Shown: in pieces, positions 17,992 through 54,689 of the stretch | How the letters are laid out: every line of letters begins with the position of its first letter | Position numbering within the stretch: position 1 is the stretch's first letter | Position numbers and translations under genes: made by a program | Source of the DNA: an uncultured Roseburia sp. | GTDB taxonomy: Bacteria > Bacillota > Clostridia > Lachnospirales > Lachnospiraceae | Assembly: GCA_910577925.1 (NCBI GenBank) | Contig: CAJTOI010000011.1 | Location: forward strand, 33,491-97,490 | Direction: 5' to 3' | DNA: 64,000 bases | Notes under the pieces: generated by a model | Database searches by the model: none | The model's input: only the letters and a program-made list of their open reading frames with translations | What the model was told of the DNA's origin: nothing

Positions 17992-18828
17992 ATGAAAAAA
18001 GATGTGAAGAAGAATAACGTCGGACAGGTATTCACCTATGCATTGTTTACCATACTCCTGATACTTTTTCTTGTCCCGTTTTTCCTTGTATTGTTAAACA
18101 GTTTCAAGGAAAATAAGGAAATAATTTTGGATCCCCTGGCATTGCCGGAAAAAATAAATCTTACCGGTTATGTAAAAGCATTTACGGCGATGAATTACCT
18201 GGAGACATTTAAAAACTCATTGACCATCACGATATTGAGTATTGTACTGATTATTTTATTTGCAGTGATGTGCGCTTATTTCTTTGCGCGCAATAATTGG
18301 AAAATTAATAAGATCCTGTTCATGATCATGGTAGCATCTATGATTATTCCGTTCCAGACGATCATGATTCCTATTGTAAAGAATTTTTCGGCAATTAATG
18401 CGGTCGATAATATTTTTATGGTTGTCGTATTTTATATAGGCGCGCATATTTCCATGGCAGTATTTATGTTTCAGGGGTTTATAAAGAATATTCCGGCAGA
18501 ATTAGATGAGGCGGCCACAATTGATGGATGTAATAATTTTCAGATTTTATTTAAGGTGATTTTTCCGTTATTAAAACCCATCATTTCAACCGTGGCTATT
18601 CTGGATATTTTAGCGATATGGAATGATTTCCTGCTTCCGTATATTTTACTGCAGAGCAACCGATTAAAGACATTACCGCTCATGACATATTCGTTTTTTG
18701 GACAGTATTCTGTAGACTATTCACTGGTATGTTCGGGACTGATTATGTCGATTCTTCCGGTCATTATTATTTATGCATTTTTACAGAAGCAGATAATTGA
18801 CGGAGTGGTAGCGGGAGCAATTAAATAA
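17992..18828 (+). CDS. ABC sugar permease (MalG/UgpE-like)
   Basis: Six hydrophobic segments; EAA loop ELDEAATIDGCNNFQILFKVIFPLLKP; ATG overlaps the upstream stop (TAATG). Confidence 0.85.
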   Translation: MKKDVKKNNVGQVFTYALFTILLILFLVPFFLVLLNSFKENKEIILDPLALPEKINLTGYVKAFTAMNYLETFKNSLTITILSIVLIILFAVMCAYFFARNNWKINKILFMIMVASMIIPFQTIMIPIVKNFSAINAVDNIFMVVVFYIGAHISMAVFMFQGFIKNIPAELDEAATIDGCNNFQILFKVIFPLLKPIISTVAILDILAIWNDFLLPYILLQSNRLKTLPLMTYSFFGQYSVDYSLVCSGLIMSILPVIIIYAFLQKQIIDGVVAGAIK

Positions 18829-20514: not shown

Positions 20515-20529
20515 ATGAGGTGAACAGAC

Positions 20530-21459
20530 ATGGGACAGAGTAAAAACTGGCAGCCGCCGGAAATTCCGGCACGGATTGCACATGGCGATATGCCGGGTGA
20601 CAAAGTTGAGATTGGAAAGGATCATATTGAAAAGGCGAATACAATATTTCCGGAGTTACTGGACGAGGTAGAGGAGACCGCGAAGAATCATTCCTCCGAC
20701 CGGGTAGTTGTGGCCGTATGCGGAGGTTCCGGTGTCGGAAAATCGGAGATCGCGTCTCTGCTGTCTTTTTACTTAAGCCAGGCGGGAATCGGAAGCTACA
20801 CGTTATCCGGGGACAACTATCCGCACAGAATACCGAAATATAATGACGCGGAGCGCCTGCATGTATTCCGGGAAGGCGCATTAAAGGGAATGCTGGGAGA
20901 CGGCGTGTATACAAAAGAGCGTTTTGATGTGATTCATGAACTGCAGATGAAGGGGGATGATGCGAATCCTGTTCATGCGAAGGAATATGACTGGTATGAT
21001 TCGTACCTGAAAAACGGGCGGAGGGCATTGGAAAGCTATCTTGGAACACCGAACGAGATTGGATTTGACGAAATAGAGGCTGTTTTGAAGCAGTTTAAGT
21101 CCGGCGTGCCCAAAATCTGGCTGAAGCGAATGGGCAGGGAAGACACGGAGTTATGGTATGAAGAAGTTGATTTTTCAGACGTGAAGGTTCTTGTAATCGA
21201 ATGGACACATGGAAACAGTGATTACTGCAGCGGAGCGGATATTCCGATTTTACTAAACAGTACGCCGGAAGAAACATTAGCGCACAGACGGGCAAGAAAC
21301 CGTGACGGTGCAGCCGACAGCCCATTTACAGCGACAGTCCTTGAGATTGAACAGGAAATGCTGAAAAAACAGGCTCACAAAGCGAAAATAATCGTTGCTA
21401 AAAACGGTGAGAAGCTGAGTTATCAGGAATACTGCAGGTTCATGGGAATAGAAGAGTGA
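20530..21459 (+). CDS. uncharacterised P-loop kinase-like protein (uridine kinase / phosphoribulokinase-like fold, tentative)
   Basis: Walker A VAVCGGSGVGKSE; no other motif recognised. Stop overlaps the GTG at 21456 of the next ORF. Confidence 0.55.
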   Translation: MGQSKNWQPPEIPARIAHGDMPGDKVEIGKDHIEKANTIFPELLDEVEETAKNHSSDRVVVAVCGGSGVGKSEIASLLSFYLSQAGIGSYTLSGDNYPHRIPKYNDAERLHVFREGALKGMLGDGVYTKERFDVIHELQMKGDDANPVHAKEYDWYDSYLKNGRRALESYLGTPNEIGFDEIEAVLKQFKSGVPKIWLKRMGREDTELWYEEVDFSDVKVLVIEWTHGNSDYCSGADIPILLNSTPEETLAHRRARNRDGAADSPFTATVLEIEQEMLKKQAHKAKIIVAKNGEKLSYQEYCRFMGIEE

Positions 21460-21470
21460 GGGGATTGGAA

Positions 21471-23168
21471 ATGAATGGAAATGATAACGGACCAATGCTG
21501 AATGCATATCCGGACAGCCTTGGAGGAACGCTTGCCGATATTACATCTTTTCTTGGCAGACCGGAATTAAAAGAGGTATTTTCATCTTTTTACATACTTC
21601 CCAGTTTGTTTCATACAGATTTGGACAGAGGGTTTTCTGTAATTGATTATTCATTAAACGAACTTGTGGCAGCAAAAGAGGATTTAGAGGAGTTAGGGAA
21701 TCTTGAGATTGATCTGAAACTCGATTTTATCTTAAATCATGCATCCGTATTATCAGAACAGTTTCAGGATATTCTCAAAAACGGAGATCAGTCAGAATAC
21801 AGAGATTTTTTTATTGACTGGAATAAATTCTGGGAAGGATATGGAGAACTGACAGAGGACGGGTATATACAGCCGTACCCGGATGTGATAAAGGATATGT
21901 TTTTCCGCAAGCCGGGACTTCCAATCTTAATGGTTCGATTCCCGGACGGAAAAGAAGTTCCGTATTGGAATACGTTTTATCAGGAAGTGAAGTATCCGAC
22001 TTTAGATGCGCAGGACATCCGAAGCACAGTGGGAGCGCAGTATGCAGCTGCGGACAGAATAGCGGACAAATTGAATAGCGGATTGAAAGAGGGAAAAAGA
22101 CCGGCGGAAATTATGAGAGAACAGGATTTTTGCATGGACAGACTTTCGGCAGAACAAAAAGAAAAACTGTGTGATATGTTAGAATCAGGACGAAAATATC
22201 TTGGACAGATGGATTTGAATATCAAGTCTCCGCTTGTATGGGAATTTTATGATAATACGTTAAAAACGCTGTCAGAATATGGTGCGAAAATTGTACGGCT
22301 GGATGCGTTTGCCTACGCGCCCAAAGAACCGGGGGAGAAAAACTTTCTCAATGAGCCCGGAACATGGGAGGTATTAGAGAAAGTAAGAAAATTAGCCGAT
22401 AAATACCGGTTGAAACTGCTGCCGGAAATTCATGCAGGCTATGCAGAGAAAAATTATGAAAGAATCGCAGAGAAAGGATATATGATATATGATTTCTTTC
22501 TCCCGGGACTTATCATTGATGCATTTGAACAGCATTCCGGTGATGTTTTGAAAAAATGGGCAGATGAACTTGCGGAGAAGAAAATACAGGCTGTTAATAT
22601 GCTTGGATGCCATGACGGGATTCCGCTTTTGGATTTAAAAGGACTGATACCGGAAGAACGAATCCGGACTGTGATTGATGCCGTTGTTGCAAGAGGCGGA
22701 TGTGTAAAGGATCTGCATGGACAGAAAAATGTTTATTATCAGGTCAATGCAACTTATTATAGTGCGCTGGGAGAAGATGACAACAAAATGCTTCTCGCAA
22801 GGGCGATTCAGATTTTTATGCCCGGAAAACCGCAGGTCTGGTATCTCGATCTTTTTGCAGGGAAAAATGATTACAAAGCAGCGGAACATGCCGGGGCGGG
22901 CGGACATAAAGAAATTAACCGTACGAATCTTACGAAGGAAGAGATGGAAGCGGGGCTGCAGAAGGAGATTGTGAGGAAACAGTTAGAAATGCTGCGGTTT
23001 CGCTCCGCATTTCCGGCATTTTCATTTGAAAGCGAATTTACAATGAGGAGTTCCGGAACTAAAATTTTCATGGAATGGAAGAGAGGCGATTGTGTGGCGA
23101 CTCTGGATGCGGATCTTGGCGACTTTTCATTTGAAATAAGCGGAAGAACAGAAGGAAAGAAGGGCTAA
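21471..23168 (+). CDS. GH13_18 sucrose-phosphorylase-family glycoside phosphorylase
   Basis: ORF 21456..23168; ATG 21471 after GAGGGGA. Family blocks MLNAYPDSLGG, VRLDAFAYA (nucleophile), LLPEIHA (acid/base), GCHDGIP. Confidence 0.8.
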   Translation: MNGNDNGPMLNAYPDSLGGTLADITSFLGRPELKEVFSSFYILPSLFHTDLDRGFSVIDYSLNELVAAKEDLEELGNLEIDLKLDFILNHASVLSEQFQDILKNGDQSEYRDFFIDWNKFWEGYGELTEDGYIQPYPDVIKDMFFRKPGLPILMVRFPDGKEVPYWNTFYQEVKYPTLDAQDIRSTVGAQYAAADRIADKLNSGLKEGKRPAEIMREQDFCMDRLSAEQKEKLCDMLESGRKYLGQMDLNIKSPLVWEFYDNTLKTLSEYGAKIVRLDAFAYAPKEPGEKNFLNEPGTWEVLEKVRKLADKYRLKLLPEIHAGYAEKNYERIAEKGYMIYDFFLPGLIIDAFEQHSGDVLKKWADELAEKKIQAVNMLGCHDGIPLLDLKGLIPEERIRTVIDAVVARGGCVKDLHGQKNVYYQVNATYYSALGEDDNKMLLARAIQIFMPGKPQVWYLDLFAGKNDYKAAEHAGAGGHKEINRTNLTKEEMEAGLQKEIVRKQLEMLRFRSAFPAFSFESEFTMRSSGTKIFMEWKRGDCVATLDADLGDFSFEISGRTEGKKG

Positions 23169-23171: not shown

Positions 23172-23219
23172 AACAGGCGGCAGCATTCTAACAAAGAAAA
23201 GCGGCTGCCTGTTGTTTTT
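23172..23219 (+). terminator. terminator after the phosphorylase gene
   Basis: AACAGGCGGCAGC pairs 11/13 with GCGGCTGCCTGTT, followed by GTTTTT. Confidence 0.6.
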
Positions 23220-23580
23220 ACTTTGAATAAACAGTGTCATTTCTTGAAAGAAGATACACACAATACTGATTCATACTGATGTCTTCCCTTTTGGAATGTT
23301 CTGCAAATAAGCGATGCAAACTACGGGGTAATCTCAATTTAAACTGACCGGAATAATCTTCCAAGTTGTCCGGTTCATTAATCTTAATCCCCTCTTCCAG
23401 TGCGGCTTCAATCCATTCCCTCTTAGCATCCGATGCATTTGCCACCGCTTTTTCTATTGTTTCACCACAAGTAATACATCCCGGCAGATCAGGGTAAGAA
23501 ACCACAAAACCACCCTCATCCTTATCCTCCAGAATCTCCATCCGATAAGACATTGCCATATAGTCATTCGGCGTTTTCAT
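23218..23580 (-). CDS. hicB: HicB-family antitoxin-like protein (no HicA partner seen)
   Basis: HicB-fold N-terminus EDKDEGGFVVSYPDLPGCITCGETIEKA and RHH-like C-terminus KLRLPRSLHRLFAEHSKREDISMNQY. Confidence 0.75.
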   Translation of the reverse strand: MKTPNDYMAMSYRMEILEDKDEGGFVVSYPDLPGCITCGETIEKAVANASDAKREWIEAALEEGIKINEPDNLEDYSGQFKLRLPRSLHRLFAEHSKREDISMNQYCVYLLSRNDTVYSK

Positions 23581-41365: not shown

Positions 41366-41839
41366 TCATTTGGTCAGTTCAAGTACGGCGACTGCAGGTT
41401 CAAAAAGAACGACATAATTGTCAACGGTCGTGTAGGCGCCGTATTTGCCTTTGTAATAAGATATGGCATCTCTTAAAAAGTCTTCGGTTACATTGAGGTA
41501 TTCGGCGGTTTCGGAAAAGCTCTGACAGTGATGCCGGTAGGCGTTCAGAATCCCGTGTAAGCCGACGAGCCGGTCGTATGCGTGAATGCGGCCGCGCATC
41601 TCCTGCCTGCGGTTAGCCGCGGAAGACTGCAGAACGATATCTCCGACCGCGGTATAGTGGTGACCGAGTTCCTCCGCCAGAATGCAGGCTTTTTCGGCGT
41701 CTGTTTCCATGTTTTTACCCAGAGCAACCACACCGTCACAATAAAGGCCCTTTAAACGCTTGCTTTCGAGGGGATAATTTTCGATGACGGTTATATTATT
41801 TTTTTCTGCATGGTCCAAAAGTTTTTCGTATTCTGTCAA
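41366..41839 (-). CDS. ImmA/IrrE-family metallopeptidase
   Basis: HEXXH zinc motif in ILAEELGHHYT; lies downstream of the XRE repressor gene on the same strand. Confidence 0.85.
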   Translation of the reverse strand: MTEYEKLLDHAEKNNITVIENYPLESKRLKGLYCDGVVALGKNMETDAEKACILAEELGHHYTAVGDIVLQSSAANRRQEMRGRIHAYDRLVGLHGILNAYRHHCQSFSETAEYLNVTEDFLRDAISYYKGKYGAYTTVDNYVVLFEPAVAVLELTK

Positions 41840-41931
41840 ATTTATTACTCCATAATAATTGTTCGGATTTTCATCGCTGCCGTGAAGGTACCTTCCTAAA
41901 TAATATCACAGATGATGTCCAATAAATGAGA

Positions 41932-42258
41932 CTACTGCCGTCTGGATTTGACAAATTCGGCAAATTTTTTGATTTCGTCCAGTTCCGCTTCGGTGTATTC
42001 GTCGCCGTCAAAGTGGGCGGCGATGGTCCGGGGCTCATTTTCCCCGCTGCCGTCTGCAAATAAATAGGAAGTGGAAGTATTCAGCGCTTTTGCAAAAGCG
42101 GATATTTTACTTTGCGGCAGGTCTACCTTCCCCGCTTCGACTTTTGCAATGGCTGTCTTATCCTTATATCCGACTAATTCGGCGAGTGCGGACTGAGATA
42201 ACTTTTTTTCTTCCCGCAGAGCTTTGATTCTTAATCCCATCGATTCCTGTGCCGTCAT
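41932..42258 (-). CDS. XRE-family HTH repressor
   Basis: ORF 41932..42270 (TTG); the ATG at 42258 is more plausible. HTH LSQSALAELVGYKDKTAIAKVEAG. Confidence 0.85.
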   Translation of the reverse strand: MTAQESMGLRIKALREEKKLSQSALAELVGYKDKTAIAKVEAGKVDLPQSKISAFAKALNTSTSYLFADGSGENEPRTIAAHFDGDEYTEAELDEIKKFAEFVKSRRQ

Positions 42259-42284
42259 GCTGTTCACCAACCTTTCCTATAGTT

Positions 42285-42486: not shown

Positions 42487-42918
42487 ATAAATACGATAAT
42501 CGATGCGGTCGGAATCGCGCTGAATGAGGAATTTGGCGATAATTACACAATCCAGACGGAAGAGACCGGGCAGAACGAGGAGAACGCTTGCTTTTTTGTT
42601 TCCTGCATCAGCCAGACAAACAGCCGGATATCCGGGAACCGGTATTTTTGGGCAAATCAATTCCGCATTCGATATTTCCCGCAGACCGGTGAAAAACAGA
42701 AGGAATGCAACGATATTGCGGCAAGATTGCAGCAGTGCCTGGAATATATCACGATTCGCGGAGAGGACAGGCCGGCCCGGGGGACGAAGATGAAATGCGA
42801 GATAACGGACGGTGTCTTGAATTTCTTTGTAAATTACGACTGCTTCGTGATCCGGGTGAAACAGAAGGAATGTATGGAGCAGTTGGAAGGAAAGACCGGT
42901 GTGAAAGGAGGCGAGTGA
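42487..42918 (+). CDS. small tail-module protein (tail-terminator/XkdJ position), no canonical start codon
   Basis: Frame open from 42481 (after TGA 42478-42480) to TGA 42916-42918 with protein-like translation (INTIIDAVGIALNEEFGDNYTIQTEE...VLNFFVNYDCFVIRV). First ATG/GTG/TTG in frame is only at 42727; ATA at 42487 follows GAAGGTGAGGAG. Confidence 0.5.
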   Translation: MNTIIDAVGIALNEEFGDNYTIQTEETGQNEENACFFVSCISQTNSRISGNRYFWANQFRIRYFPQTGEKQKECNDIAARLQQCLEYITIRGEDRPARGTKMKCEITDGVLNFFVNYDCFVIRVKQKECMEQLEGKTGVKGGE

Positions 42919-43127
42919 TTTTGGCGGCAGTGAAAAAGCGGGAAACCGGTGCACAGGCAGAAAGCAGGATGGCGGAAGCGCTGTTCAATAAAGAGCAGAT
43001 TGCGGCATCAGGGCGATATCGCAGTCAAAGGGATCTGGTGGAGGCCCTTCTTACAGAGGGGAAAACGTACACCATCGCAGCAGTTGACAACATGATTGAG
43101 AAATACAGGAAAGGAAAGGTGAACTAA
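42915..43127 (+). CDS. small hypothetical tail-module protein
   Basis: GTG 42915 overlaps the upstream stop (GTGA) and follows AAAGGAGG. Ends 1 nt before the sheath ATG. Part of listed ORF 42705..43127. Confidence 0.5.
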   Translation: MILAAVKKRETGAQAESRMAEALFNKEQIAASGRYRSQRDLVEALLTEGKTYTIAAVDNMIEKYRKGKVN

Positions 43128-43128
43128 T

Positions 43129-44436
43129 ATGGCTTTAGGCGGCGGTAATTTTACCACACAGAATAAGGAATTACCCGGCACATACATCAACTTCGTGTCG
43201 GCGGCTTCCGCTTCGGCGGCATTATCCGGACGGGGGATTGCAACGATGCCTCTCGAGCTGGACTGGGGAAAAGAGGGAGAAGTTTTTGAGGTGACAAACG
43301 AGGAGTTCCAGAAAAACAGCATGAAGATTTTCGGATATGCGTTTGACGATCCGAAAATGAAGGGGATTCGTGATCTGTTTTTGGGAGCAAAAACTTTATA
43401 CGCATACCGCTTAAACGGCGGCGGGGAAAAAGCGTCAAATACATATGCGTCGGCTCTGTACGGCGGAACCCGCGGGAATGATCTGAAAATTGTGATTCAG
43501 GCGAACGCGGACGATGAGGCAAAGTTTGATGTGGCAACCTACCTCGGAACGGCAAAGGTGGACACACAGACGGTTGCGGCGGCATCCGAACTTACCGCAA
43601 ATGACTATGTGACTTTTAAAGCGGACGCAGAGCTCGCCGTTACGGCATCCATGCCGCTTGCAGGCGGGACAGACGGAACGGTCGACGGCACGGCGCACCA
43701 GAACTATCTCGATAAAATCGAGTCGTACACCTATAACACGATGGGTGCGGCGGTGACGGACGAGACGACAAAGAAGCTGTATGCGGCGTTTAACAGGCGC
43801 CTCCGGGATGAGATGGGAGTGAAATTCCAGCTGGTGCTTTACCGGATGAACGCAGACTTCCCCGGTGTGATCAGCGTGAAGAATAAGGTCACGGATGCCG
43901 GATGGAGTGAGGCTGCGCTTGTATACTGGGTGACCGGCGCCGAGAGCGGCTGCGCAGTCAATAAATCCTGTCAGAATAAGGTCTATGACGGCTCCTTTAC
44001 GGTTGATGCGGATTTCACACAGAACGAGCTGCGTCAGGCCATGAAAGACGGAGAGTTTGTGCTGCACCGGGTAAATACGGATATCCGCGTCCTGGAAGAC
44101 ATCAATACGATGGTTACGGTGACGGATACGCAGGGGGAAGTTTTTAAGGACAATCAGACCATCCGTGTCATTGACCAGATCGGAAATGACATTGCGGTAC
44201 TGTTTGCGACAAAGTATCTGGGTGTTGTCCCGAATGATGCGGCAGGCAGAGTCTCTCTGTGGTCCGATATCGTGGCGCATCACCGGGAACTGGAAAGAAT
44301 CCGTGCAATCGAGGATTTTTCCGACAGCGATGTGACCGTGGAGCAGGGGACATCAAAGAAATCCGTGGTTGTCACCGATCTTGTGACGGTCGTAAATGCG
44401 ATGAGCAAACTGTATATGACCTGCATGATATCTTAA
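43129..44436 (+). CDS. contractile tail sheath protein (XkdK-like)
   Basis: 435 aa; N-terminus MALGGGNFTTQNKELPGTYINF is typical of Firmicute phage sheath proteins. Confidence 0.9.
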   Translation: MALGGGNFTTQNKELPGTYINFVSAASASAALSGRGIATMPLELDWGKEGEVFEVTNEEFQKNSMKIFGYAFDDPKMKGIRDLFLGAKTLYAYRLNGGGEKASNTYASALYGGTRGNDLKIVIQANADDEAKFDVATYLGTAKVDTQTVAAASELTANDYVTFKADAELAVTASMPLAGGTDGTVDGTAHQNYLDKIESYTYNTMGAAVTDETTKKLYAAFNRRLRDEMGVKFQLVLYRMNADFPGVISVKNKVTDAGWSEAALVYWVTGAESGCAVNKSCQNKVYDGSFTVDADFTQNELRQAMKDGEFVLHRVNTDIRVLEDINTMVTVTDTQGEVFKDNQTIRVIDQIGNDIAVLFATKYLGVVPNDAAGRVSLWSDIVAHHRELERIRAIEDFSDSDVTVEQGTSKKSVVVTDLVTVVNAMSKLYMTCMIS

Positions 44437-44453
44437 GGAAGGAGTGAAGAAAA

Positions 44454-44936
44454 ATGAGCCAGAATGTGATTATGAATGCCAAGGACGCCGTGTACGGCAG
44501 TCTTGCAGAGTGTTTCATTACAATTGAGAACAGGCGTTACAATTTCATGAGCCTGACAGATTTTGAGAGTAAATGGGAGGTAAATATCACGGATGTTCCG
44601 ATTCTGGGAAAAGTCGGAATGGGACATAAAGCGGCAGGCGGAAAAGGTACATGGAGCGGCACGGCACATTACAACCAGTCCGTTTTCCGGGAAATGGCAA
44701 ACCATTACCAGAAAACCGGCGAAATGCCGTATTTTGAAATCCAGGTGAGCAATGAGGACCCTGTCAGCGCGGCGGGCAGACAGACCATCGTGCACAGAGA
44801 CTGCCTGTGCGACACGTTTGTGCTTGCGAAATTCCAGGCCGGTGAGGAGATTTTGGACGAGGAGCTCTCCGGAACTTTTGAGAGCTGGGACATGCCGGAG
44901 AAATTTAACGAGATAGACGGTTTTGTCGCGAACTAA
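44454..44936 (+). CDS. tail tube protein (XkdM-like)
   Basis: 160 aa immediately after the sheath gene; block ECFITIENRRYNFMSLTDFESKWE resembles XkdM-type tube proteins. Confidence 0.85.
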   Translation: MSQNVIMNAKDAVYGSLAECFITIENRRYNFMSLTDFESKWEVNITDVPILGKVGMGHKAAGGKGTWSGTAHYNQSVFREMANHYQKTGEMPYFEIQVSNEDPVSAAGRQTIVHRDCLCDTFVLAKFQAGEEILDEELSGTFESWDMPEKFNEIDGFVAN

Positions 44937-44956
44937 CAGAAAGGGGACAAGTATTT

Positions 44957-45388
44957 ATGTCAAAATTCAGCCGTTTTATGCGGACAAATAAAATCACAGA
45001 ACCAAATGTGAAGTATGCACCTACCCATACGCTTCTGGACGAAAACGGGAAGCCGCTGGAATGGGAATTTAAGCAGATATCTTCGAAAGAAAACGAGGAG
45101 CTGCGGGATTCCTGCACGATCGAGGTTCCGATCAAAGGAAAGCCGAACCTCTACAGGCCGAAGGTAAAGACTGCCGAATATCTCGCAAAGATGATTGTGG
45201 CATCGACGGTATATCCGGACCTGTATGACAAGGAGCTGCAGGACTCCTACGGGGTTATGACACCGGAAGAATTGCTCTATGCAATGGTGGATAATGCCGG
45301 AGAATATCAGGAATTTGCCGCCTGGATGCAGAAATTCCAGGGGTTTGCGAAGGGGCTTGACGATAAGGTAGACGAGGCAAAAAACTGA
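44957..45388 (+). CDS. tail assembly chaperone (XkdN-like), short form
   Basis: 143 aa between the tube and tape-measure genes; ends with slippery A_AAA_AAC followed by TGA. Confidence 0.8.
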   Translation: MSKFSRFMRTNKITEPNVKYAPTHTLLDENGKPLEWEFKQISSKENEELRDSCTIEVPIKGKPNLYRPKVKTAEYLAKMIVASTVYPDLYDKELQDSYGVMTPEELLYAMVDNAGEYQEFAAWMQKFQGFAKGLDDKVDEAKN

Positions 45389-45579
45389 TTGAGGGAGGGG
45401 ATGGTGAGGCGAATTTCGCCTACTATGCCCTCCATAAACTTCACATCCGGCCTTCTGTATTTCTTGAAATGGAGGAGCAGGAAAAGGCGTTTGTGATTGC
45501 CGCGATTAAAATCCGGCTGGAAAACGATAAAAAAGAAAGACAGAAAGCGGCAGACAAAGCGAAGCGAAGAAGAAAGTAA
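44957..45579 (+). CDS. tail assembly chaperone, predicted -1 frameshift long form
   Basis: The -1 frame is open from 45367 to TAA 45577-45579 and encodes LIEGGDGEANFAYYALHKLHIRPSVFLEMEEQEKAFVIAAIKIRLENDKKERQKAADKAKRRRK. It has no start codon of its own. Confidence 0.6.
45379..45385 (+). promoter_or_regulatory. -1 programmed frameshift heptamer A_AAA_AAC
   Basis: In the zero frame the codons are GCA AAA AAC TGA; X_XXY_YYZ pattern immediately before the stop. Confidence 0.6.
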
Positions 45580-45591
45580 TAGAAAAGGCAG

Positions 45592-48075
45592 GTGGGCAGG
45601 ATGTCAGGTATTCAGGCACAAATTGAGCTGAATGATCATTTCAGCAGTGTTTTAAACTATATTGTAAACGCCGTCAATCTTGCGGCTGCGGCGGAACCGG
45701 TTGAAGTTCCGGTTCACTGGGAGGTGAATGAAGTTCCGGTTTTTACCGGCACGGGAGCAGACCGCTTCCGGCAGGAAGTGCAGAGCGCGGACACCATGTT
45801 GGAACAGCTGTGCAATACACAGAATGCGATTGCGAAGCAGGCATACGAAACCATGCTGTTTCCGCCGGAAGCATTTCAGAATCTGAACACATTAGCGGTC
45901 AGAATTGATACGGTGCGGGAACGCATCCGGCAGATTGAGAGTAATCCGGTAAACATCGGAACCGACACTGCTAATGCGGAACTGGAACGTCTGCGCGGCA
46001 GCCTTGGCCAAATGGTGCAGGAACAGGCGGAACTGAACAGCGCCATGCAGAACAAGGACGTTTCAGCCGCAAATGACGCTTATCTGCGCCTGTCTCAGAC
46101 GGTCGGCGGGACAGAGCGTTATATCCGGGACAACGTGGACGAACAGGGGCGGTTTAATCAGGAGATACAAGCCGGGGCACAGCAGACAAACGGGCTGACC
46201 AACATGATAAAAAAAGTGGCGGGCGCATATATCAACGTGCAGAATGCCGGGAAAGTGCTGGATATATCGGATGAGCTGACGCAGGCGACGATGCGGCTTG
46301 ATTTGATGAATGACGGTCTGCAGAGTACGCCCGAGCTTGTCAATATGGTGTATGCGGCGGCGAGAAGTACACACGCCCCGTTTCTGGAAACGGCAGATGC
46401 CATCGCTAAAATGGGGAATGAAGCAGGCGGTGCCTTTGGATCCAATGCGGAATTAATCGCATTTATGGATCAGGCAAATAAACAGTTTGCAATCGGCGGC
46501 GCAGGCGCGGAGGATCAAGCGGCCGCAATGGAGCAATTGCGTCAGGCGATGGCGGCGGGAACGTTTAGCGGGAACGAATTAAATTCCGTTTTGGCCGCGG
46601 CCCCGCAAATTGCAGGGGCAATCGAACAAAGCATGGGTTGGGCAGAAGGCTCTATCATGTCGTATGCACAGGAAGGCGCCGTCACCGCGGAGGTGGTCAA
46701 GAACGCACTGCTTTCTGTGGCAGATGAGACAAACGCGGCTTATGAAAATGTGCCGGTCACATTTTCTCAGATGATGACAGACTTAAAGAGCGGTGCGCTC
46801 AAAGCGTTTCAGCCGCTCCTGCAGGGAATCAATGACATCGTAAACAGCGAGATCTTTCAGAGTTTTGCAGACGGTGCGGTTGAAGCGTTGGGGATACTTG
46901 CCGGGATGGCGACAGATGTGTTTGATATGATGATGGCGGCAGGCGGATTTATCGCGGACAATTGGTCGATTATCGAACCGCTTATTCTGGGGGTGGCTGC
47001 GGCGCTGATTGTGTACAATGCGACGATGGGTATTGCATGGCTTACGACACTGCAAGAGACAGCAGCAAAGATAGCAGGTGTTGCAGCCAGTGGGGCGCAG
47101 GCCGTAGCTACTTTTGCGGCGACGGTTGCGCAGCAAGGATTAAACGCTGCTCTTGCGGCATGCCCGCTTTCATGGATTATTATAGCGATTATTGCTTTGA
47201 TTGCGATTATCTATGCGGCCGTGGCGGCATTTAATAAATTTACCGGAGAATCCGTCTCGGCGACGGGGCTCATCATGGGTGCGTTTGCCGTACTTGCAGC
47301 GCATATCCTGAATACGTTTGTGATTCCGGTTATTAACGGGTTTGCAATGTTTGCAAACTTTATCGGAAATGTATTTCACAATCCGATTGCGGCGATTAAA
47401 GTGCTTTTTTATGACATGTGCCTGAATGTCATCGGCTATATTCAGAATCTGGCGCACGGAATAGAGACGCTGCTCAACAAGATACCGGGCGTGACGGTGA
47501 ATATCACGAGCGGGCTGGACAGCCTTTATGCAGAGTTAGCGGAGGCGCAGCAGGCGGTAAAAGACGAGTCCGGGTGGATTGAGTATGTAGGAAAGATAGA
47601 CTATATCGACGATACAGGCGCAATGAATGCAGGGTATGAGTTCGGCGCCGGCATTGAGGAGACAGTCAGCAATTTCAATCTGTCCGATATCTTCGGCAGC
47701 GGGGGATTACCAGGCTCGCAGGAGAGCCCGTTAAAGGACTTAGTATCGCAATTTGCCGGTGTAATAGGGAATCCGGGGACGGATGATAGTTTCGGCGGCA
47801 ATATGGAAGGGATGAGTGACAATCTCGGCAGTATTGCCGGGGACACCGGCGCGATTAAGGATTCCATGGACATCACGCAGGAAGACCTGAAGTATCTGCG
47901 GGATATTGCGGAGCAGGAAGCGATTAACAGATTTACAACGGCAGAGATTCATGTGGATATGTCAGGTATGAGCAACACGGTCAACAGCGGTGACGATCTT
48001 GACGGATTCATGTCAAAACTGACGGATTCGGTGTATGAAGCGGTTGACAATATGACAGAGGGGGTACATGCGTAA
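45592..48075 (+). CDS. tape measure protein
   Basis: 827 aa, Ala/Gly-rich with coiled-coil-like N-terminus and long hydrophobic central segments. Position after the chaperone pair. ATG 45601 is an alternative start. Confidence 0.85.
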
Positions 48076-48749
48076 TGGCAGACAGCGGTTATGAATTTTA
48101 CTTAGACAAATGCTTATTGCCTGTGACTCCGTCGAAGCTGGAGTTAAAGATTAACAATGCAAATAAGACGGTAACGCTCATCAATGAGGGTGAGATAAAC
48201 ATTTTAAAACGGGCAAAGCTGACGGATATCGAGTTTACCTGCGAGATTCCGCAGATGAAGTACCCGCATGCCGTCTATAAAGATGGTTTTAAGGGAGCGG
48301 ATTACTTCCTGGACTATTTTGAGTCGCTGAAAAACAGCGGCAAACCGTTTCCGTTTATCGTGTGCCGGGCGCTCAGTGACAAAAAGCTGTTCGGCACAAA
48401 CATGAAGGTAACGCTGGAGGATTACAAGCTGACCGAGGATGCCGGAAACGGCGTTGATCTTGAGGTAAAGATAGCGCTTAAGCAGTGGCGGGATTACGGC
48501 ACAAAAACGGTACATGTAACCGTGACGGCCCAGAAACCGCAGATGTCGGCGGGACCGCAGCGGGAGGGAGCACCGGCACAGCCAGGTACCTATACGGTGG
48601 TAAAGGGGGACTGTCTCTGGAATATCGCCAAACGATTTTACGGGAACGGTTCCATGTATACCGTTATCTACAATGCAAACAAAGGCGTGATCGGCGGGAA
48701 TCCGAATCTGATTTATCCGGGACAGGTGCTGACAATTCCGGCCGTATAA
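48075..48749 (+). CDS. LysM-domain tail protein (XkdP-like)
   Basis: C-terminal Lys[51 protein letters not shown]; ATG overlaps the TMP stop. Confidence 0.85.
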
Positions 48750-48758
48750 GGAGAATTT

Positions 48759-49742
48759 ATGGACATTGAACTTTTAATCGGGGACGAGACGGGGACAAAA
48801 GCGTATCTTCCCGCGGTGGAAGAAGGGATTGAGTGGACGACGGAACGGCGGGGCACACCGGGAAAACTGACGTTTCAGGTATTAAAGGACGACGCTCTCG
48901 ACTTTTCGGAGGGGAGCGCCGTCAGGCTCAAAGCAGACGGACATGAGATTTTCTTCGGCTTCGTATTTAAGCAGCGGCGGGAAAAAGACCGGATTATCAC
49001 GGTCACGGCATATGATCAGCTGCGGTATTTAAAGAATAAAGACACGATTGTCTATGAGAACAAAACCGCTGCGCAGTTTATTCGGATGATCGCAGCGGAC
49101 TATTCCATGAATCCGGGGCAGATCGATGACACCCTGTTTGTGATTGAATCGCGGGTAGAAGAAAACACGTCTCTGTTTGAAATGATAGAGAACGCCTTAG
49201 ACCTCGAGCTGACGAACACGGGGGAGCTGTATGTGCTGTACGATGATTTCGGCCGGTTGAGTTTGAAGCACTTATCGGAAATGTATGTGGGGGATAATGT
49301 AAACGGATACCTGATGATAGATGAGGAAACCGGAGAAAATTTCGAATACACATCCTCCATCGACGACAACACGTTCAACCGGATAAAACTGACTTATGAC
49401 AACGAGGAAACCGGACGGCGGGACGTGTACATCACGCAGGACGGGAGCAATATCAACCGGTGGGGGATTCTGCAGTACTTCGACACGCTGTCGAAAGGCG
49501 AAAACGGGCAGGCAAAGGCGGATGCGCTGTTAAAGCTGTATAACAAAAAGACGCGCAGCTTACGGCTCACAAACGCAATCGGGGATAACCGGGTGCGGGC
49601 AGGGTCGATGGTGATCATCTGTCTCGATCTCGGAGATATGAAGTTAAACAATTTTATGCTGGTGGAGACCTGCAAACACACATATCGGCAGGGGGAACAC
49701 CGGATGGATCTGACATTGAGGGGAGGCGAATTTGTTGGCTGA
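48759..49742 (+). CDS. baseplate hub-like protein (XkdQ/YqbQ position)
   Basis: 327 aa; order and size match XkdQ; family assignment from memory only. Confidence 0.7.
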   Translation: MDIELLIGDETGTKAYLPAVEEGIEWTTERRGTPGKLTFQVLKDDALDFSEGSAVRLKADGHEIFFGFVFKQRREKDRIITVTAYDQLRYLKNKDTIVYENKTAAQFIRMIAADYSMNPGQIDDTLFVIESRVEENTSLFEMIENALDLELTNTGELYVLYDDFGRLSLKHLSEMYVGDNVNGYLMIDEETGENFEYTSSIDDNTFNRIKLTYDNEETGRRDVYITQDGSNINRWGILQYFDTLSKGENGQAKADALLKLYNKKTRSLRLTNAIGDNRVRAGSMVIICLDLGDMKLNNFMLVETCKHTYRQGEHRMDLTLRGGEFVG

Positions 49743-50139
49743 TGCAAACGAGCTGGTTGCGGCGATGAAGAAGGCTGCGACCGAGGCGGTGGAAGCCGGA
49801 AAACCGGTCAATGTATTTTTCGGGAAGGTGAAAGCGGTAAAACCGCTCAATATTGACGTAGAGCAAAAGCTGCTGCTGGGTGAAAAGCAGCTGATACTTT
49901 CGCGGAGTGTGACGGATTACAAGATAACGATTACCGGAGGGAATACGAAGGATTATTATTACACCGGTTCGACAGCGGAATCCGGTACGGCGGCAGTCTC
50001 CCCGCCGCATATACATGCCATCGGAAAAACAGAAATCACCGTGCACAATGGGCTGGATGTCGGAGACGAAGTACTATTGATAAGGCAGCAGGAAGGACAG
50101 AAGTTTTTCGTGATAGAGCGAATAGGAGGTGCGGGATGA
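49732..50139 (+). CDS. DUF2577-like baseplate protein (XkdR position)
   Basis: 135 aa, TTG start overlapping the upstream gene. Confidence 0.65.
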   Translation: MLADANELVAAMKKAATEAVEAGKPVNVFFGKVKAVKPLNIDVEQKLLLGEKQLILSRSVTDYKITITGGNTKDYYYTGSTAESGTAAVSPPHIHAIGKTEITVHNGLDVGDEVLLIRQQEGQKFFVIERIGGAG

Positions 50140-50540
50140 TTCCGTCGACAACCGGATTTTTAAAGCAGGATATTGAAATCAAAGAGCAGCCGGGCAAAAC
50201 CTATGGGATGGACTTAAACGGCGATTCCGTCCGCGGGTATGCGGACGGGCGGGAAGCCGTACAGCAGGCGGTTTTCCGCATATTGAACACGGAGCGGTAT
50301 CGGTATCTGATCTACCCGTGGTGGTATGGGATTGAAACAACGGATTTATACGGGGAGCCGCTAAACTGGGTATGCGCGGAGCTGGAGCGCAGAATCGCGG
50401 AAGCGCTTCTTACGGATTCCAGAATCAAAAGTGTGACGGATTTTGAACATGACATCCGCAAAAAAGGAACGGTCCACACGACTTTTACCGTAAATACGAT
50501 ATATGGAGATGTGCGGGGGGAGAGAGAGGTGAGCATATAG
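50136..50540 (+). CDS. DUF2634-like baseplate wedge protein (XkdS position)
   Basis: 134 aa, 4-nt overlap with the upstream gene; block AVFRILNTERYRYLIYPWWYG. Confidence 0.7.
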   Translation: MIPSTTGFLKQDIEIKEQPGKTYGMDLNGDSVRGYADGREAVQQAVFRILNTERYRYLIYPWWYGIETTDLYGEPLNWVCAELERRIAEALLTDSRIKSVTDFEHDIRKKGTVHTTFTVNTIYGDVRGEREVSI

Positions 50541-51743
50541 ATGTATGAAAAAATGACAGATGATTTTCTGCGGGAACGGATGCTGGCGCGGGTATCGGAT
50601 AAGCTGGATAAACGGCCGAGCGCCCTGATATATGACACGCACGAGGCGACGGCAAACGAACTCGCAATCTTATACATTGAACTTGAATATCTGGTTAAAA
50701 ACTCATACGGCGATACGGCGGCCCGGGAATTTCTGACTTTACTGTGCAGGGACCGCGGAATTACGCCGGAACCGGCGAGCCGCGCCGTATTAAAAGGGGT
50801 ATTCGAGCCGGACAACATTGATGTGACCGGGAAGCGGTTTAACATCGGGGATATCAATTATACGGTCATGGAGCAGATTGCGCCCGGACAGTATCGGGTG
50901 GAATGTGAGTCGGAGGGCGTTATCGGAAACCGATATCTGGGACAGATGATACCGATGGACTACATACGGGGGCTGAACACGGCGGAGCTTGTGGAACTCT
51001 TAATTCCCGGGGAGGACGAGGAGGATACCGAAGCGCTGCGGAAGCGTTATTTTGACAGCTTTAACGAGCAGGCGTTCGGCGGAAACAGGACAGACTATGC
51101 CGCGAAAGTAAAGCGCATACCGGGCATCGGGGCTGTGAAGGTTACCCGCGTGTGGAACGGGGATATCCGTCCGGCCGAGCTGATTCCGACGAGTGCGGTC
51201 ACGGCGTGGTATGAGTCCGTGATAGGCGGCCTTGACAAAGAGACGGCCGATTGGCTGTCTGCGGTCTATCTGGCAGCGCTGCAGAAGAAATTGACGGTGG
51301 GAGGGACAGTGCTGGTTACGGTCGCAAATGCCGATGATTTCGGGGAGGCCGGCGACGTGCTGCTGAATGAAGTGCAGTCCGTGCTTGATCCGGAAGAACA
51401 TGCGGGTGAGGGGTACGGGCTTGCGCCGATCGGACATGTCGTAACGGTGAAAAGTGCAGAACCCGTCGAGATAAACGTCAGTACAACGTTGACGTTTGAG
51501 GACGGGTACGGCTGGAATAACCTGGAAGCATCGATTACAGGTGCGGTGGATGACTATCTGCTGGAGCTTCGGAGCAAATGGGCGGACAGCAATGATACAG
51601 TCGTCAGAATCAGTCAGATTGAATCCCGGATTCTGTCGGTGCAGGGAGTGGCGGATATTAAGGATACAAAACTGAACGGAAACGCCGAAAACGTAATATT
51701 GGGCGCGTATGAAATTCCGGTAACGGGAGGTGTTGGCGCATGA
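50541..51743 (+). CDS. baseplate J-like protein (XkdT position)
   Basis: 400 aa, starts directly after the upstream stop; size and order of Baseplate_J proteins. Confidence 0.8.
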   Translation: MYEKMTDDFLRERMLARVSDKLDKRPSALIYDTHEATANELAILYIELEYLVKNSYGDTAAREFLTLLCRDRGITPEPASRAVLKGVFEPDNIDVTGKRFNIGDINYTVMEQIAPGQYRVECESEGVIGNRYLGQMIPMDYIRGLNTAELVELLIPGEDEEDTEALRKRYFDSFNEQAFGGNRTDYAAKVKRIPGIGAVKVTRVWNGDIRPAELIPTSAVTAWYESVIGGLDKETADWLSAVYLAALQKKLTVGGTVLVTVANADDFGEAGDVLLNEVQSVLDPEEHAGEGYGLAPIGHVVTVKSAEPVEINVSTTLTFEDGYGWNNLEASITGAVDDYLLELRSKWADSNDTVVRISQIESRILSVQGVADIKDTKLNGNAENVILGAYEIPVTGGVGA

Positions 51744-52270
51744 TTCGAGAAGTCGACCTTGTTTCCTACTTACCGCCGTTTATGGCCAAGTACAGAGAAC
51801 CGGCTGCGGCACTTGAGGCCGAAAATCCCGAGTTTCTGCTTGCGTGGAGCGCTGCGGACCGGATTTTAAACAACCGGTTTCTGTCGACCGCGGACGAGTA
51901 CGGAATTTCAAGATTTGAAAAAATGCTGAAGATTTATCCGGACAAAGCAGACGACATAGAAACGCGGAGAACGCGGGTGCTGCTGCGCTGGAACAACCGC
52001 GTGCCGTATACGCTGCGCAGCCTGACGGCGAAGCTGAATGAGGTTTTAAAAGGCGGGCATAACTTTGTGCTCGAGCTGAAGGAGTATGAGCTTGTTTTGA
52101 CGGTATACGGGTTAGACGACAGTCAAAATGCGGAATTAGAGTATGTGCTGTCCGTAATGGTTCCGCTGAATATAACGACAGACATCATATATGAAAGCCC
52201 GCTTGCGGGGAGTGTGTTTTTCGGCGGAATTATGCAGGAAGCAGATCTGATCGAACTGAGAGAAAGGTAG
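51740..52270 (+). CDS. DUF2313/YmfQ-like tail protein (XkdU position)
   Basis: 176 aa, 4-nt overlap; N-terminal YLPPFMAKYRE...LSTADEYGISRFEKML block. Confidence 0.7.
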   Translation: MIREVDLVSYLPPFMAKYREPAAALEAENPEFLLAWSAADRILNNRFLSTADEYGISRFEKMLKIYPDKADDIETRRTRVLLRWNNRVPYTLRSLTAKLNEVLKGGHNFVLELKEYELVLTVYGLDDSQNAELEYVLSVMVPLNITTDIIYESPLAGSVFFGGIMQEADLIELRER

Positions 52271-52279: not shown

Positions 52280-53692
52280 ATGGCATGGACAGGATTAACG
52301 CTGACGGTAGACGGAAGAAATGCGCTGAACCAGGCACAGATGAACAACAGATTGTGCTTTAAGGCGATTGTGATAGGGGACGGAAATCCTCCGGGAAATT
52401 TTGGGACGCAAAAGAGTCTGGTACATCCGTTATATGAGCTGACCGACTTGAAAGTCGACATGACGGACGAAGGCTGTGCTTTGACAGCGGACTTTCCTGC
52501 AGTCGACGCCGATTATTATTTTCGTGAAATCGGTGTGATCGTCGCCACGGAAGACGGCGATAAGCTGTATGTGTATGATAATTGCGGGGACGATGCACAG
52601 TACATTGTGTCCACGACGGGGGCGGAGCGGACACAGAAGAGGATACGGCTTTATCTGACAATCAGTGATGTTGCGGATGTCGCGGTGTCTGCGCCCGCCA
52701 TCCTGTATGTCGATTATGACGAGTATGAAAAGGATATCGAAGAATTGAACCAGAAGATCGATGTACTGGGTACAAATGATATCTCAGGTATTGGGGATGG
52801 GAGTGTGACGGGGGCCCTTACTGCACTGAAAGAATCAACGTCAAATAATGAAGATGCCTTGATAGCATTGGAACAGGTGATGGGTACAAAAGCAGGACAG
52901 GCAGAGACGGAGTCCGCCCTTGCCCGAAAGCTTGATAAAACCGGGGATGCGAAAGACACCACAGTGACATTTGCGAGTGCCGATGTGGCGGACGGAGGCG
53001 CAGGTGCGTGGACGAGTGTTGGGAAACTGTCAACAGGTGAAAAACTTGGCAGTGCATTTAATAAGGTATCAATGATGTTTAAAAATATCCGATATCTGTA
53101 TAAAATGCTCGGGACGACAAATATATCAGCGATTGGTGGAGGGACGGTGACGGGGGCAATCAGTAAGTTAAACACCGATTTGGGTGGGAAACAAAACGCT
53201 GCGACCGCTATAAATACTTCTAATATTGGTAGCCAGAGAGTAAATTATGCTACATCCTCTGGGACTGCAACGAAAGCCACACAGGACGGAAACGGACGCA
53301 ATATCGTAAATACCTATCTGCCCAAAAGTGATACTGGGGTTTATTACGGAGCGTCATTAACGACTGCAAAATCAATTCCAAATGATGTTGAAATAGAAAT
53401 ATTAACCGTTACAGCGGCCGTAACGGGTATTTACATGATTTTAGGCCAGGTCAATTTTGTGAGCAATAAAACAGGTCTGCGATATATATTGTTTAAAAAT
53501 AATGCCGCAGACGGGTCGTTTGGAGGGGTCCAAGTCGGCGCCTCACAGAGCGGTAAAACACAGGTGCAGGCATTTGGGGTAGGCGCATACGCGATTGGCG
53601 CCGGGGAGAAAGTCCGTTTATACGCAAAGCAAAACAGCGGCGCAGCGTTAAATGTATCGACCGCATACATGTCTCTCGTACGCCTAAAATAA
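52280..53692 (+). CDS. tail fibre / receptor-binding protein
   Basis: 470 aa, last gene of the module. Two copies of an I(S/A)xIGxGxVTGA motif. The C-terminal 169 aa lie inside the segment bracketed by the 15-bp inverted repeats. Confidence 0.8.
   Translation: MAWTGLTLTVDGRNALNQAQMNNRLCFKAIVIGDGNPPGNFGTQKSLVHPLYELTDLKVDMTDEGCALTADFPAVDADYYFREIGVIVATEDGDKLYVYDNCGDDAQYIVSTTGAERTQKRIRLYLTISDVADVAVSAPAILYVDYDEYEKDIEELNQKIDVLGTNDISGIGDGSVTGALTALKESTSNNEDALIALEQVMGTKAGQAETESALARKLDKTGDAKDTTVTFASADVADGGAGAWTSVGKLSTGEKLGSAFNKVSMMFKNIRYLYKMLGTTNISAIGGGTVTGAISKLNTDLGGKQNAATAINTSNIGSQRVNYATSSGTATKATQDGNGRNIVNTYLPKSDTGVYYGASLTTAKSIPNDVEIEILTVTAAVTGIYMILGQVNFVSNKTGLRYILFKNNAADGSFGGVQVGASQSGKTQVQAFGVGAYAIGAGEKVRLYAKQNSGAALNVSTAYMSLVRLK
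53168..53182 (+). repeat. inverted repeat, left copy (inside fibre gene)
   Basis: TTAAACACCGATTTG = fibre codons 297-301 (LNTDL). Perfect reverse complement at 53981-53995. Confidence 0.9.
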
Positions 53693-53980
53693 TTATATCT
53701 TAGATATTGTCATGAGCTGGTATATACCCATTAATTCACAGGTTTTATCAGATCTCAGTGTCATATTGCCAGTCGCGGAGTTGTACACATAATCTATGGT
53801 AATTGTGCCATCGGTGATGCGTCCTCTGGTATTAGTAATACCAATTAATGTATAAAATTTGGCATCGAAATTGATGTAAAATAATATCAAAAAACCTCTT
53901 AATGATATAGAAAATTCTTTTGGCGTATCCTTTCCCAGGTGACCGCCTCTATTCGTTAGGCCATATGTTAAGCTGTTACT
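53693..53980 (-). other. promoterless, inverted alternative fibre C-terminal cassette
   Basis: Minus-strand ORF 53693..53983 (96 codons). It continues in frame from the inverted LNTDL repeat, which is itself preceded by TAA. No RBS or ATG. Its stop abuts the fibre stop. AT-rich (about 35% GC in line 53701-53760). Confidence 0.55.
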
Positions 53981-53995
53981 CAAATCGGTGTTTAA
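53981..53995 (-). repeat. inverted repeat, right copy
   Basis: CAAATCGGTGTTTAA on the + strand; on the minus strand TTAAACACCGATTTG. Confidence 0.9.
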
Positions 53996-54007
53996 TTAAA
54001 ATCGTCT

Positions 54008-54279
54008 AACCATGCTGCATCCGCTGGAACTGCCACCAAAGCGACACAGGACGGGAATGGACGTAATATCGTAACTATTTATTTAACGAAAAGTGATCGG
54101 CGTATATTTCATACACGGCCAGGCGAACTTTGCAAGTAATAAGACCGGATTGCGTCGGTTGGAATTGAAAAATAATAATGTAAATGGTTTGTTTGGAGGA
54201 ACCCAGGCAGGGGCTTCAGGGAGCGGAAAAACGGATGTGCAGGTTGTCGGTATCAGCGGATCGACATTTGCAGCTAGAG
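54008..54279 (+). pseudogene. decayed third fibre C-terminal module (direct orientation)
   Basis: Two frames translate to NHAASAGTATKATQDGNGRNIVTIYLTKSD and IGVYFIHGQANFASNKTGLRRLELKNNNVNGLFGGTQAGASGSGKTDVQVVG. These parallel fibre residues NYATSSGTATKATQDGNGRNIVNTYLPKSD and TGIYMILGQVNFVSNKTGLRYILFKNN.... There is an internal deletion/frameshift and a 3' truncation. Confidence 0.65.
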
Positions 54280-54312
54280 AAAAAGGGAACAAATCATTTC
54301 TGATTTATTCCC
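54280..54312 (-). repeat. copy B of the 33-nt terminator-like repeat
   Basis: AAAAAGGGAACAAATCATTTCTGATTTATTCCC, 31/33 identical to 23647-23679, same orientation. Confidence 0.8.
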
Positions 54313-54645
54313 CCAACAAAATTGCGGTACTGCTTTAAAATGGAACCGGTGCGTATATGTGCGCCATTCGTTTAAAATAAGTCTAATGTAACATTTCCGG
54401 CGAGTCATTAAAACGCCTGGATTTGTGGCGACATTTGACAAGAGATGTCCATACATAAAGAATATTATGTAGTAAATGATATGAATAAAAACGGAGAGAG
54501 CAGACACTTGGATTTTTGGGGAACGTCGTTGGAAACTTCATAAATTAGGCGAATGCAAGAAGAGCTGCGGAAAAATAGTGAATCGAAATCATATGAGATT
54601 TAAAAATTTTCATTAGTGACAGGTTATGGTTATTGTCTGGTATGG

Positions 54646-54689
54646 TATAAGAACCCACATATAAAGTGCGGGTTCTTATACTTATTTTT
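54646..54689 (+). terminator. terminator-like hairpin at the end of the AT-rich tail-cluster remnant
   Basis: TATAAGAACCC pairs with GGGTTCTTATA, followed by CTTATTTTT. Confidence 0.55.

Follow-up and report, generated by a model that had tools for sequence, protein, structure and literature searches.

A tail-fibre gene of an uncultured Roseburia carries the probable locked remnant of a tyrosine-recombinase shufflon

The tail-fibre gene of an uncultured Roseburia sp. ends in what a first-pass annotation had read as an invertible switch of its receptor-binding tip, and it raises two questions: is this a genuine switch, and does this copy still operate? The gene (52280..53692, plus strand) lies in a stretch of 64,000 nucleotides (nt) of contig CAJTOI010000011.1; this stretch is called the window, and all coordinates refer to it unless a compared locus is named (compared loci and proteins carry L- and P-numbers, respectively). 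We conclude, with a probability of roughly 65%, that the locus is a locked remnant of a tyrosine-recombinase tail-fibre shufflon, in which one tip, cassette A, is expressed and a second one, cassette B, is a silent, intact spare.

The 15-mer TTAAACACCGATTTG occurs exactly twice in the window, at 53168-53182 (plus strand) and at 53981-53995 (minus strand), and with their flanks included the two copies match at 17 of 18 positions. No other perfect inverted repeat of 15 nt whose arms are separated by 50-1500 nt was found in the 64 kb. Within the fibre open reading frame (ORF) of 470 amino acids (aa), the left copy, crossover site S1, is in frame as codons 297-301 and encodes LNTDL. It follows the constant N-terminal part of the fibre (52280..53167, plus strand, codons 1-296) and precedes cassette A (53183..53692, plus strand), the expressed C-terminal tip of 169 aa, in which GGKQ follows LNTDL and the stop codon is at 53690-53692. 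The right site (53981..53995, minus strand) repeats S1 in inverted orientation. The next plus-strand triplet, TTA (53996-53998), corresponds to a TAA stop codon directly 5' of LNTDL on the minus strand. Translation of that strand reads RF*LNTDLSNSLTYG...MTISKI*, with SNSL following LNTDL, and continues in frame through the ORF 53693..53983, so that 95 codons follow the site. These codons make up cassette B (53693..53980, minus strand), whose stop codon at 53693-53695 abuts that of cassette A (53690-53695). Cassette B has no start codon or ribosome-binding site of its own, and no Shine-Dalgarno motif was seen upstream of its TTG when the sequence was read by eye. Its GC content is about 34%, compared to about 50% in the fibre gene.

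The layout described by the first-pass annotation was thus fully recovered, with a 301-aa constant part and a 169-aa C-terminus that inversion would replace with an AT-rich one of 95 aa. The inversion products would contain the constant|B junction …CAGTAAGTTAAACACCGATTTGAGTAACAGC… and the outer-flank|A junction GATTTTAATTAAACACCGATTTGGGTGGGAAAC, and further genomic copies of the site would correspond to YTAAACACCGATTT. No further ORF is present between the cassettes, and hence the segment contains no assembly gene of the U/U' type. Together, the window combines a constant N-terminus, a short repeated site in frame and alternative promoterless C-terminal cassettes, with a single inverted site pair and not the more than two sites that multiple inversions would use.

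Comparison with homologues revealed that LNTDL is a module junction. A search with the fibre retrieved proteins in which the first 301 residues were 97-99% identical to the window fibre. After ...GGTVTGAISKLNTDL they diverge into unrelated C-termini, counted as four: those of P0004, P0007/P0017 and P0010/P0018, and the A type of P0003. The orthologous locus encoding P0010, L003, is located on a 195-kb ENA contig at the same chromosomal position, with the same tail genes upstream and the lipoprotein, ArsC-family, PFK and DnaX genes downstream (96-99% identical). At the DNA level, the window and L003 are 98.8% identical up to 53182; homology stops exactly there and resumes at 53982, from where window positions 53982-54383 align with 9352-9738 of L003 at 82% identity. 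L003 contains four copies of TAAACACCGATTT (6892+, 7557-, 8744+ and 9352-), compared to 0.2 expected, and this core is shared with S1 of the window. The right site of the window has its outer flank in common with the outermost L003 site, S4. Each L003 site opens an LNTDL-led cassette of 83-128 aa, and a stop codon stands immediately before each of the two inverted cassettes. The L003 region that separates sites 2 and 3 encodes a tyrosine recombinase of 332 aa (7621-8619), which scores as XerA/XerC/XerD-like and, from about residue 60 onwards to the C-terminus, is matched by structures of XerC-like proteins, XerD and XerA. The comparison of orthologous loci that had been proposed therefore yielded the same site, a recombinase and a set of cassettes in L003, and also related contigs with swapped cassettes. 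A-type tips are also found in L003, L020 and L035, where the cassettes are silent or expressed.

The constant part also has a peculiarity of its own. The window fibre has about 41 extra codons at 52732-52879 (…KDIEELNQKIDVLGTNDISGIGDGSVTGAL…) that are missing from P0003/L007, and this stretch holds one arm of a repeat (52766-52815 / 53108-53157), a copy of the motif GT.NIS.IGGG.VTGA that is 72% identical in DNA to the one ahead of the site.

The window itself encodes no such enzyme. Neither tblastn with the XerC/D-like recombinase and with Gin nor Pfam scans of about 60 ORFs uncovered a tyrosine or serine recombinase in the 64 kb, in agreement with the first-pass annotation. A dedicated tyrosine recombinase next to the cassettes is thus absent from the window and present in L003 and about 35 related loci, and the window locus is therefore most likely a shufflon derivative that lost its recombinase. 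A serine recombinase adjacent to the segment was not found either; the relatives encode a tyrosine enzyme instead. The proposed likeness to the Mu G, P1 C and p15B Min switches consequently holds for the logic of the switch, but not for the class of the enzyme. As the same site accompanies a dedicated recombinase in L003 and in dozens of Lachnospiraceae loci, and cassettes are swapped in related contigs, the resemblance becomes homology.

These loci belong to a family of tyrosine-recombinase tail-fibre shufflons that is common in Lachnospiraceae. A scan of species-representative genomes for the recombinase yielded 27 loci, 26 of them in Lachnospiraceae, and a further 11 IMG/VR contigs encode it. 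Hosts include Eubacterium sp. 14-2 (twice), Acetatifactor, Petralouisia, Parablautia and Muricoprocola. The layout S1(+) S2(-) recombinase S3(+) S4(-) recurs in many loci, and the number of sites in relatives ranges from four to six, the latter in Acetatifactor muris. The site consensus consists of an invariant YTAAACAC (codons L-N-T) and 5-7 further bases, which are uniform at all sites of one locus and differ between loci. Even the two shufflons of the single Eubacterium sp. 14-2 genome are distinguished in this way (...ACCGAT versus ...ACGGAT; L012 has C throughout, L013 has G throughout). We infer that the recombinase would bind YTAAACAC as its arm and that the 5-7 nt after it would form the overlap; R64, with its asymmetric sfx sites, offers a parallel. 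Cassette diversity is high (97 cassettes, mostly singletons), and the fibre family is highly mosaic. We found no paper describing this Lachnospiraceae shufflon family, nor one linking shufflons with tailocins or an intragenic inverton with a tail fibre.

A more distant candidate is present in the cultured Terrisporobacter phage TPELB_ph1 (L050, PP197244.1). Between a putative fibre gene, which it directly follows, and the holin gene, this phage has a gene for an XerC/D-like 'integrase' (17645-18640) that is 31% identical to the shufflon recombinase and may belong to a related fibre switch; an inverted-repeat scan of this phage gave no clear site pair. Its second, large 'integrase' (20529-22112) is presumably a serine recombinase, judging from its size.

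Shuffled arrangements of relatives were observed in nature. L044 and L047, which stem from the same metagenome, share the same two S3-S4 cassettes (97.6% and 99.3% aa identity) at exchanged positions and in exchanged orientations. The cassettes found at S1/S2 in L046 recur at S4/S3 in L048 (95% and 100% identity). L005 (GCA_948487935.1) is identical to L003 up to S3 and then continues with the cassette that L003 has at S1, which represents an alternative junction. The L005 contig ends with this arrangement (recombinase-flank|S3|cassette D, 8740-8797), and cassette D is also found at S1 of the same contig; this end junction probably reflects a recombined subpopulation, or else an excised circle, that left its trace in the assembly. 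Recombinase scaffolds of about 1 kb from Bacterium D16-50 were also considered as traces of inversion in culture and were rejected, as they do not end at sites and represent collapsed paralogues.

One relative documents how a recombinase can be lost. The locus L004, from a metagenome-assembled genome, equals L003 minus an exact S2-to-S4 deletion, with flanks that are 99.7-100% identical. The deletion product, constant-S1-tip> <tip-S4-pseudo-A', has the architecture of the window, and we infer that a site-to-site deletion of this kind also gave rise to the window copy. Loci with two cassettes and no recombinase exist with different pairs: the A/B pair is found at this position in the window, L002, L007-L011 and L061-L064, a pair of C with a long Peptidase_S74 tip in L006, L055, L056 and L058, and the pair D/A2 in L004.

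The architecture shared with L004 includes pseudo-A', a feature that had been overlooked in the first-pass annotation. Pseudo-A' (54002..54380, plus strand) is an A-type tip that has decayed; three-frame translations show frameshifts and the loss of an internal part. It shares the direct repeat D1 with the A-type tip (81% identity over 86 nt) and ends, like A, in ...AYMCAIRLK*. It occupies the same position outside the right site or S4 in L003, L004, L007 and L055. Pseudo-A' is probably the original fibre C-terminus that was displaced when the shufflon arose or was acquired. A diversity-generating retroelement was considered as a source of the differences between A and pseudo-A' and was rejected: Pfam scans revealed no reverse transcriptase, and the differences affect all four bases and include indels instead of being adenine-specific.

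The mechanism that we propose would operate as follows. In complete members, an XerC/D-like recombinase is located between two pairs of opposed, promoterless cassettes (S1> tip, tip <S2, recombinase, S3> tip, tip <S4) and would act on short in-frame sites that consist of YTAAACAC plus a locus-specific overlap and encode L-N-T-x. Inversion between S1 and an inverted site would give the constant shaft of the fibre another receptor-binding tip. The window lacks the recombinase and the inner cassettes, which would most likely have been lost via recombination of the directly oriented sites S2 and S4. This deletion would leave constant-S1-A> <B-S4, followed by the old pseudo-tip, and without the recombinase the switch would most likely be locked on tip A.

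Several lines of evidence show that cassette B is a genuine tip. Only two close relatives of B were found, an identical ORF and a 78%-identical copy on the 928-nt contig L001. The latter starts with *NTDL, has synonymous changes in the site and is separated by about 100 nt from the 3' end of a gene for a tyrosine recombinase. Between B and the L001 copy, the ratio of nonsynonymous to synonymous substitution rates (dN/dS) is 0.17 over 99 codons (dS 0.68), a value that indicates purifying selection and counts against the random AT-rich ORF that the first-pass annotation had named as a way to be wrong. An exhaustive HMMER search identified relatives with 37-41% identity, which form the C-terminal ~95 residues of fibre-like proteins of 213-275 aa; in P0123, P0126 and P0128 the tip starts at LN(S/Q)(N/D/S)L. 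AlphaFold2 modelling of B from two sequences only reached a mean predicted local distance difference test score (pLDDT) of 51.5. After six remote homologues had been added, an all-beta model with a pLDDT of 84 and a predicted template modelling score of 0.73 was obtained. Its best PDB match was the T7 gp17 fibre tip (probability ~1.0, TM-score 0.52-0.58, weak E-values of ~0.05); a Klebsiella phage tailspike was also matched, and several annotated tail fibres were among the best viral matches. Selection, the position of the homologues at fibre C-termini and the fold matches together indicate that B is a real receptor-binding tip in a silent position, as judged from sequence comparison and a predicted structure. 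The combination of structure prediction and hidden Markov models that had been suggested thus supported a fibre tip.

Next, we turn to the question whether this copy is switching. A collection of 15 billion proteins was searched, and 54 of its blocks list the A-form protein of 470 aa with exactly this sequence. All 23 contigs that were read (23/23) had the same gene arrangement and no recombinase gene. In four loci that were fetched, the segment from S1 through A and B to the right site was identical and in the same orientation, although the flanks diverge by up to 2.8%, and it was likewise identical in ten full-length loci compared (L007-L011, L061-L064). A is also expressed in L002 and L007-L011; in all, the lineage is represented by more than 30 contigs from many samples, all of them consensus assemblies, and the swapped A/B orientation was unseen in them. 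Metagenomes also carry this strain, for example ERZ13404991, which has a contig that is 100% identical. Neither of the two protein searches of the collection returned a fusion of the constant part with B. Scans of metagenomes of the Joint Genome Institute for the flipped junction and for constant|S1 were both empty; this collection lacks the lineage, as the reference junction was also absent. Because all lineage assemblies have A expressed and no constant-B fusion was found, the copy looks frozen, and it is probably not switching.

Several points weigh against a locked remnant. Both sites and the frame of B are perfectly intact, so that nothing in the sequence marks a dead switch. The search for a recombinase covers 64 kb, and a paralogue in another part of the genome could supply the enzyme in trans; two such shufflons are present in Eubacterium sp. 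14-2, and Bacterium D16-50 has three or more copies of the recombinase. A minority orientation would be hidden in consensus assemblies. Finally, the evolutionary direction is not proven, and either a deletion from a four-site locus or an insertion of a recombinase module into a two-site locus would lead to the observed pair of architectures.

The best-surviving alternative is that the switch is active: an enzyme from outside the window, either a paralogue of the shufflon recombinase or a different tyrosine invertase, would flip 53183-53980 in trans, and the strain would phase-vary between tips A and B with A being the majority form. The perfect, identical sites and the intact B would be expected under this explanation, some related genomes do possess two or three recombinase copies, and the commonness of recombinase-less two-cassette loci with three different pairs would easily be explained by supply in trans. 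On the other hand, A alone is expressed in the lineage contigs and the protein collection yielded no constant-B fusion, the L003 genome has a second tail cluster with a fibre gene that lacks an adjacent recombinase, and L004 demonstrates that a recombinase can be lost by a simple site-to-site deletion. We consider an active switch of this kind unlikely, though it is the alternative to be taken most seriously. The first-pass annotation had pointed to such a trans-acting enzyme, similar to RecV, as a requirement for any inversion; as an explanation of the missing invertase this is the weaker one, and the comparison of L004 with L003 makes deletion of the module the better one.

A more far-reaching idea is that the head-less tail is a working tailocin with a killing spectrum set by the shufflon, and that the recombinase module (recombinase, two tips and one site) is a mini-circle that can be excised and re-inserted. 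We regard this as speculative and rather improbable. If it were true, recombinase-less loci would represent a reversible 'parked' state, and the Lachnospiraceae population would consist of many fixed-specificity tailocin variants and a few shuffling ones.

It is highly improbable that no site-specific system exists at all, and that LNTDL is a mere conserved linker used for homologous tip swaps between phages, with the inverted B as debris. Homologous exchange fits the mosaic fibre family, and it seems to have occurred around this very switch. The 1177 nt at 52976-54152, which comprise the two sites together with cassettes A and B, show 100% identity to L007; the divergence is 7% in the adjoining 96 nt and about 25% in the 230 nt beyond. 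The identical tract overruns the two sites by 192 and 157 nt; a recombinase-mediated A/B exchange between lineages was therefore rejected, and the mosaic suggests a recent exchange of a homologous patch. However, a linker would not explain why dozens of loci have the site in close linkage with a dedicated recombinase and in a constant arrangement of four sites, why the site bases are uniform within a locus and variable between loci, or why silent cassettes are systematically preceded by stop codons, nor would it account for the reciprocal inversion in L044/L047 and the exact site-to-site deletion in L004. Lastly, a chance inverted repeat next to a spurious minus-strand ORF, which might be entertained as Markov shuffles of the window contained such a 15-mer repeat somewhere in 7 of 100 cases, is refuted by the comparative data, because the site is in frame at the exact module boundary common to all family members, occurs four times in L003 and leads into a B that has a dN/dS of 0.17 and homologues at fibre C-termini.

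A locked remnant of a tyrosine-recombinase shufflon can be placed among known systems by comparing descriptions. The nearest described one is the Rin shufflon of prophages of Bifidobacterium breve and B. longum, which has an armless XerD-like tyrosine invertase acting on 11-bp rix sites, a constant part (Rc) and variable cassettes (Rv) (Mavrich et al. 2018, PMC6109161). In both cases, an armless XerD-like tyrosine recombinase joins, by inversion, the constant N-terminus of a receptor-binding protein to several short, dissimilar C-terminal cassettes, short asymmetric crossover sites lie at the cassette starts, and variants differ by inversions there. The site sequences differ (rix is TTCCCTAACCC, versus YTAAACAC... 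here), and the Rin recombinase flanks the cassettes on one side, whereas here it is central, between two cassette pairs. Rin is found in inducible prophages with a receptor-binding protein like that of lactococcal siphophages; the family described here resides in Lachnospiraceae (Firmicutes) and, at this chromosomal locus, forms part of a head-less contractile tail cluster, and the window copy is devoid of the recombinase.

The Rci shufflon of R64/IncI1 is the mechanistic archetype: a tyrosine recombinase, multiple inverted sites (sfx) with a conserved arm plus spacer, and C-terminal adhesin tips (PilV) that are exchanged on a constant N-terminus. Its target is a conjugative pilus adhesin and not a phage-tail fibre, and the site sequences are unrelated. 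Only inversions are reported for Rci, whereas a site-to-site deletion is documented here by L004. The Mu G/Gin, P1 C/Cin, e14 P/Pin and p15B Min systems share the constant fibre N-terminus, the intragenic site and the opposed C-termini, of which the silent one lacks a start. Gin, Cin, Pin and Min are serine invertases with Fis-dependent enhancers; the relatives studied here have a tyrosine recombinase, and the window has none. Furthermore, the segments of those phages carry an accessory tail-fibre assembly gene (U/U'), whereas the cassettes here run stop-to-stop.

Programmed switching of receptor-binding tips allows phages and phage-tail weapons to change targets without mutation. This one locus led, via genome assemblies, to a widespread tyrosine-recombinase tail-fibre shufflon family in Lachnospiraceae, and it points to a failure mode of shufflons, in which directly oriented sites recombine, the recombinase is deleted and one specificity becomes frozen. 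Such site-to-site deletions may explain 'orphan' invertible-looking cassettes in genome scans. In addition, the defined site and the library of tips of about 90-130 aa could serve the engineering of tailocin or phage host ranges.

The fibre gene is the last gene of a head-less PBSX/Xkd-like contractile tail cluster (42705..52270, plus strand), as recognised from Pfam and PHROG matches; the first-pass annotation had also placed it in a head-less tail cluster. All its genes are on the plus strand: sheath (43129-44436), tube (44454-44936), an XkdN-like chaperone (44957-45388), tape measure (45592-48075), a LysM protein (48075-48749), a YqbQ-like protein (48759-49742), baseplate proteins including baseplate J (49732-51743) and a Mu gp48-like protein (51740-52270). 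Pfam scans of the about 60 ORFs across the 64 kb detected no head, portal, terminase, integrase or invertase genes, and the tail set is thus complete without capsid, portal or terminase genes within the 41 kb upstream and 10 kb downstream. The order sheath, tube, XkdN, tape measure, LysM, YqbQ, baseplate J and fibre, with no head genes, is that of R-type tailocins and PBSX-like tails (diffocin, the xkd genes of PBSX). A difference is that no holin or endolysin was recognised in the window, and the tail cluster has no recognisable lysis genes beside it.

Divergent from the tail cluster and directly 5' of it, a pair of minus-strand ORFs (41366-42270) was read from the translations as a putative ImmA/IrrE-like metalloprotease (HEXXH motif) and a putative XRE-type helix-turn-helix repressor; a Pfam scan assigned no family to the ImmA-like ORF. 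The pair looks like a prophage-style SOS regulatory module kept by the tail element, and metabolic genes lie farther upstream.

Downstream of the fibre region, about 1.5 kb that are present in L007 are deleted in the window between the pseudo-tip and the lipoprotein gene (54388-54402 versus 8971-10513 of L007); in L007, this stretch encodes a 247-aa PH_gly_zipper/SHOCT protein and a 117-aa PH_gly_zipper protein. A 15-nt stem with a 7-nt loop (GTATAAGAACCCACA/TGCGGGTTCTTATAC) at 54645-54681 resembles a terminator, and both L003 and L004 have conserved it. Elsewhere in the window, a HicB-like antitoxin gene is present at 23218-23580 (minus strand), and the sole transposase, an IS1595-family DDE enzyme (16098-17108, plus strand), is encoded between the solute-binding protein and permease genes of a sugar ATP-binding cassette transporter.

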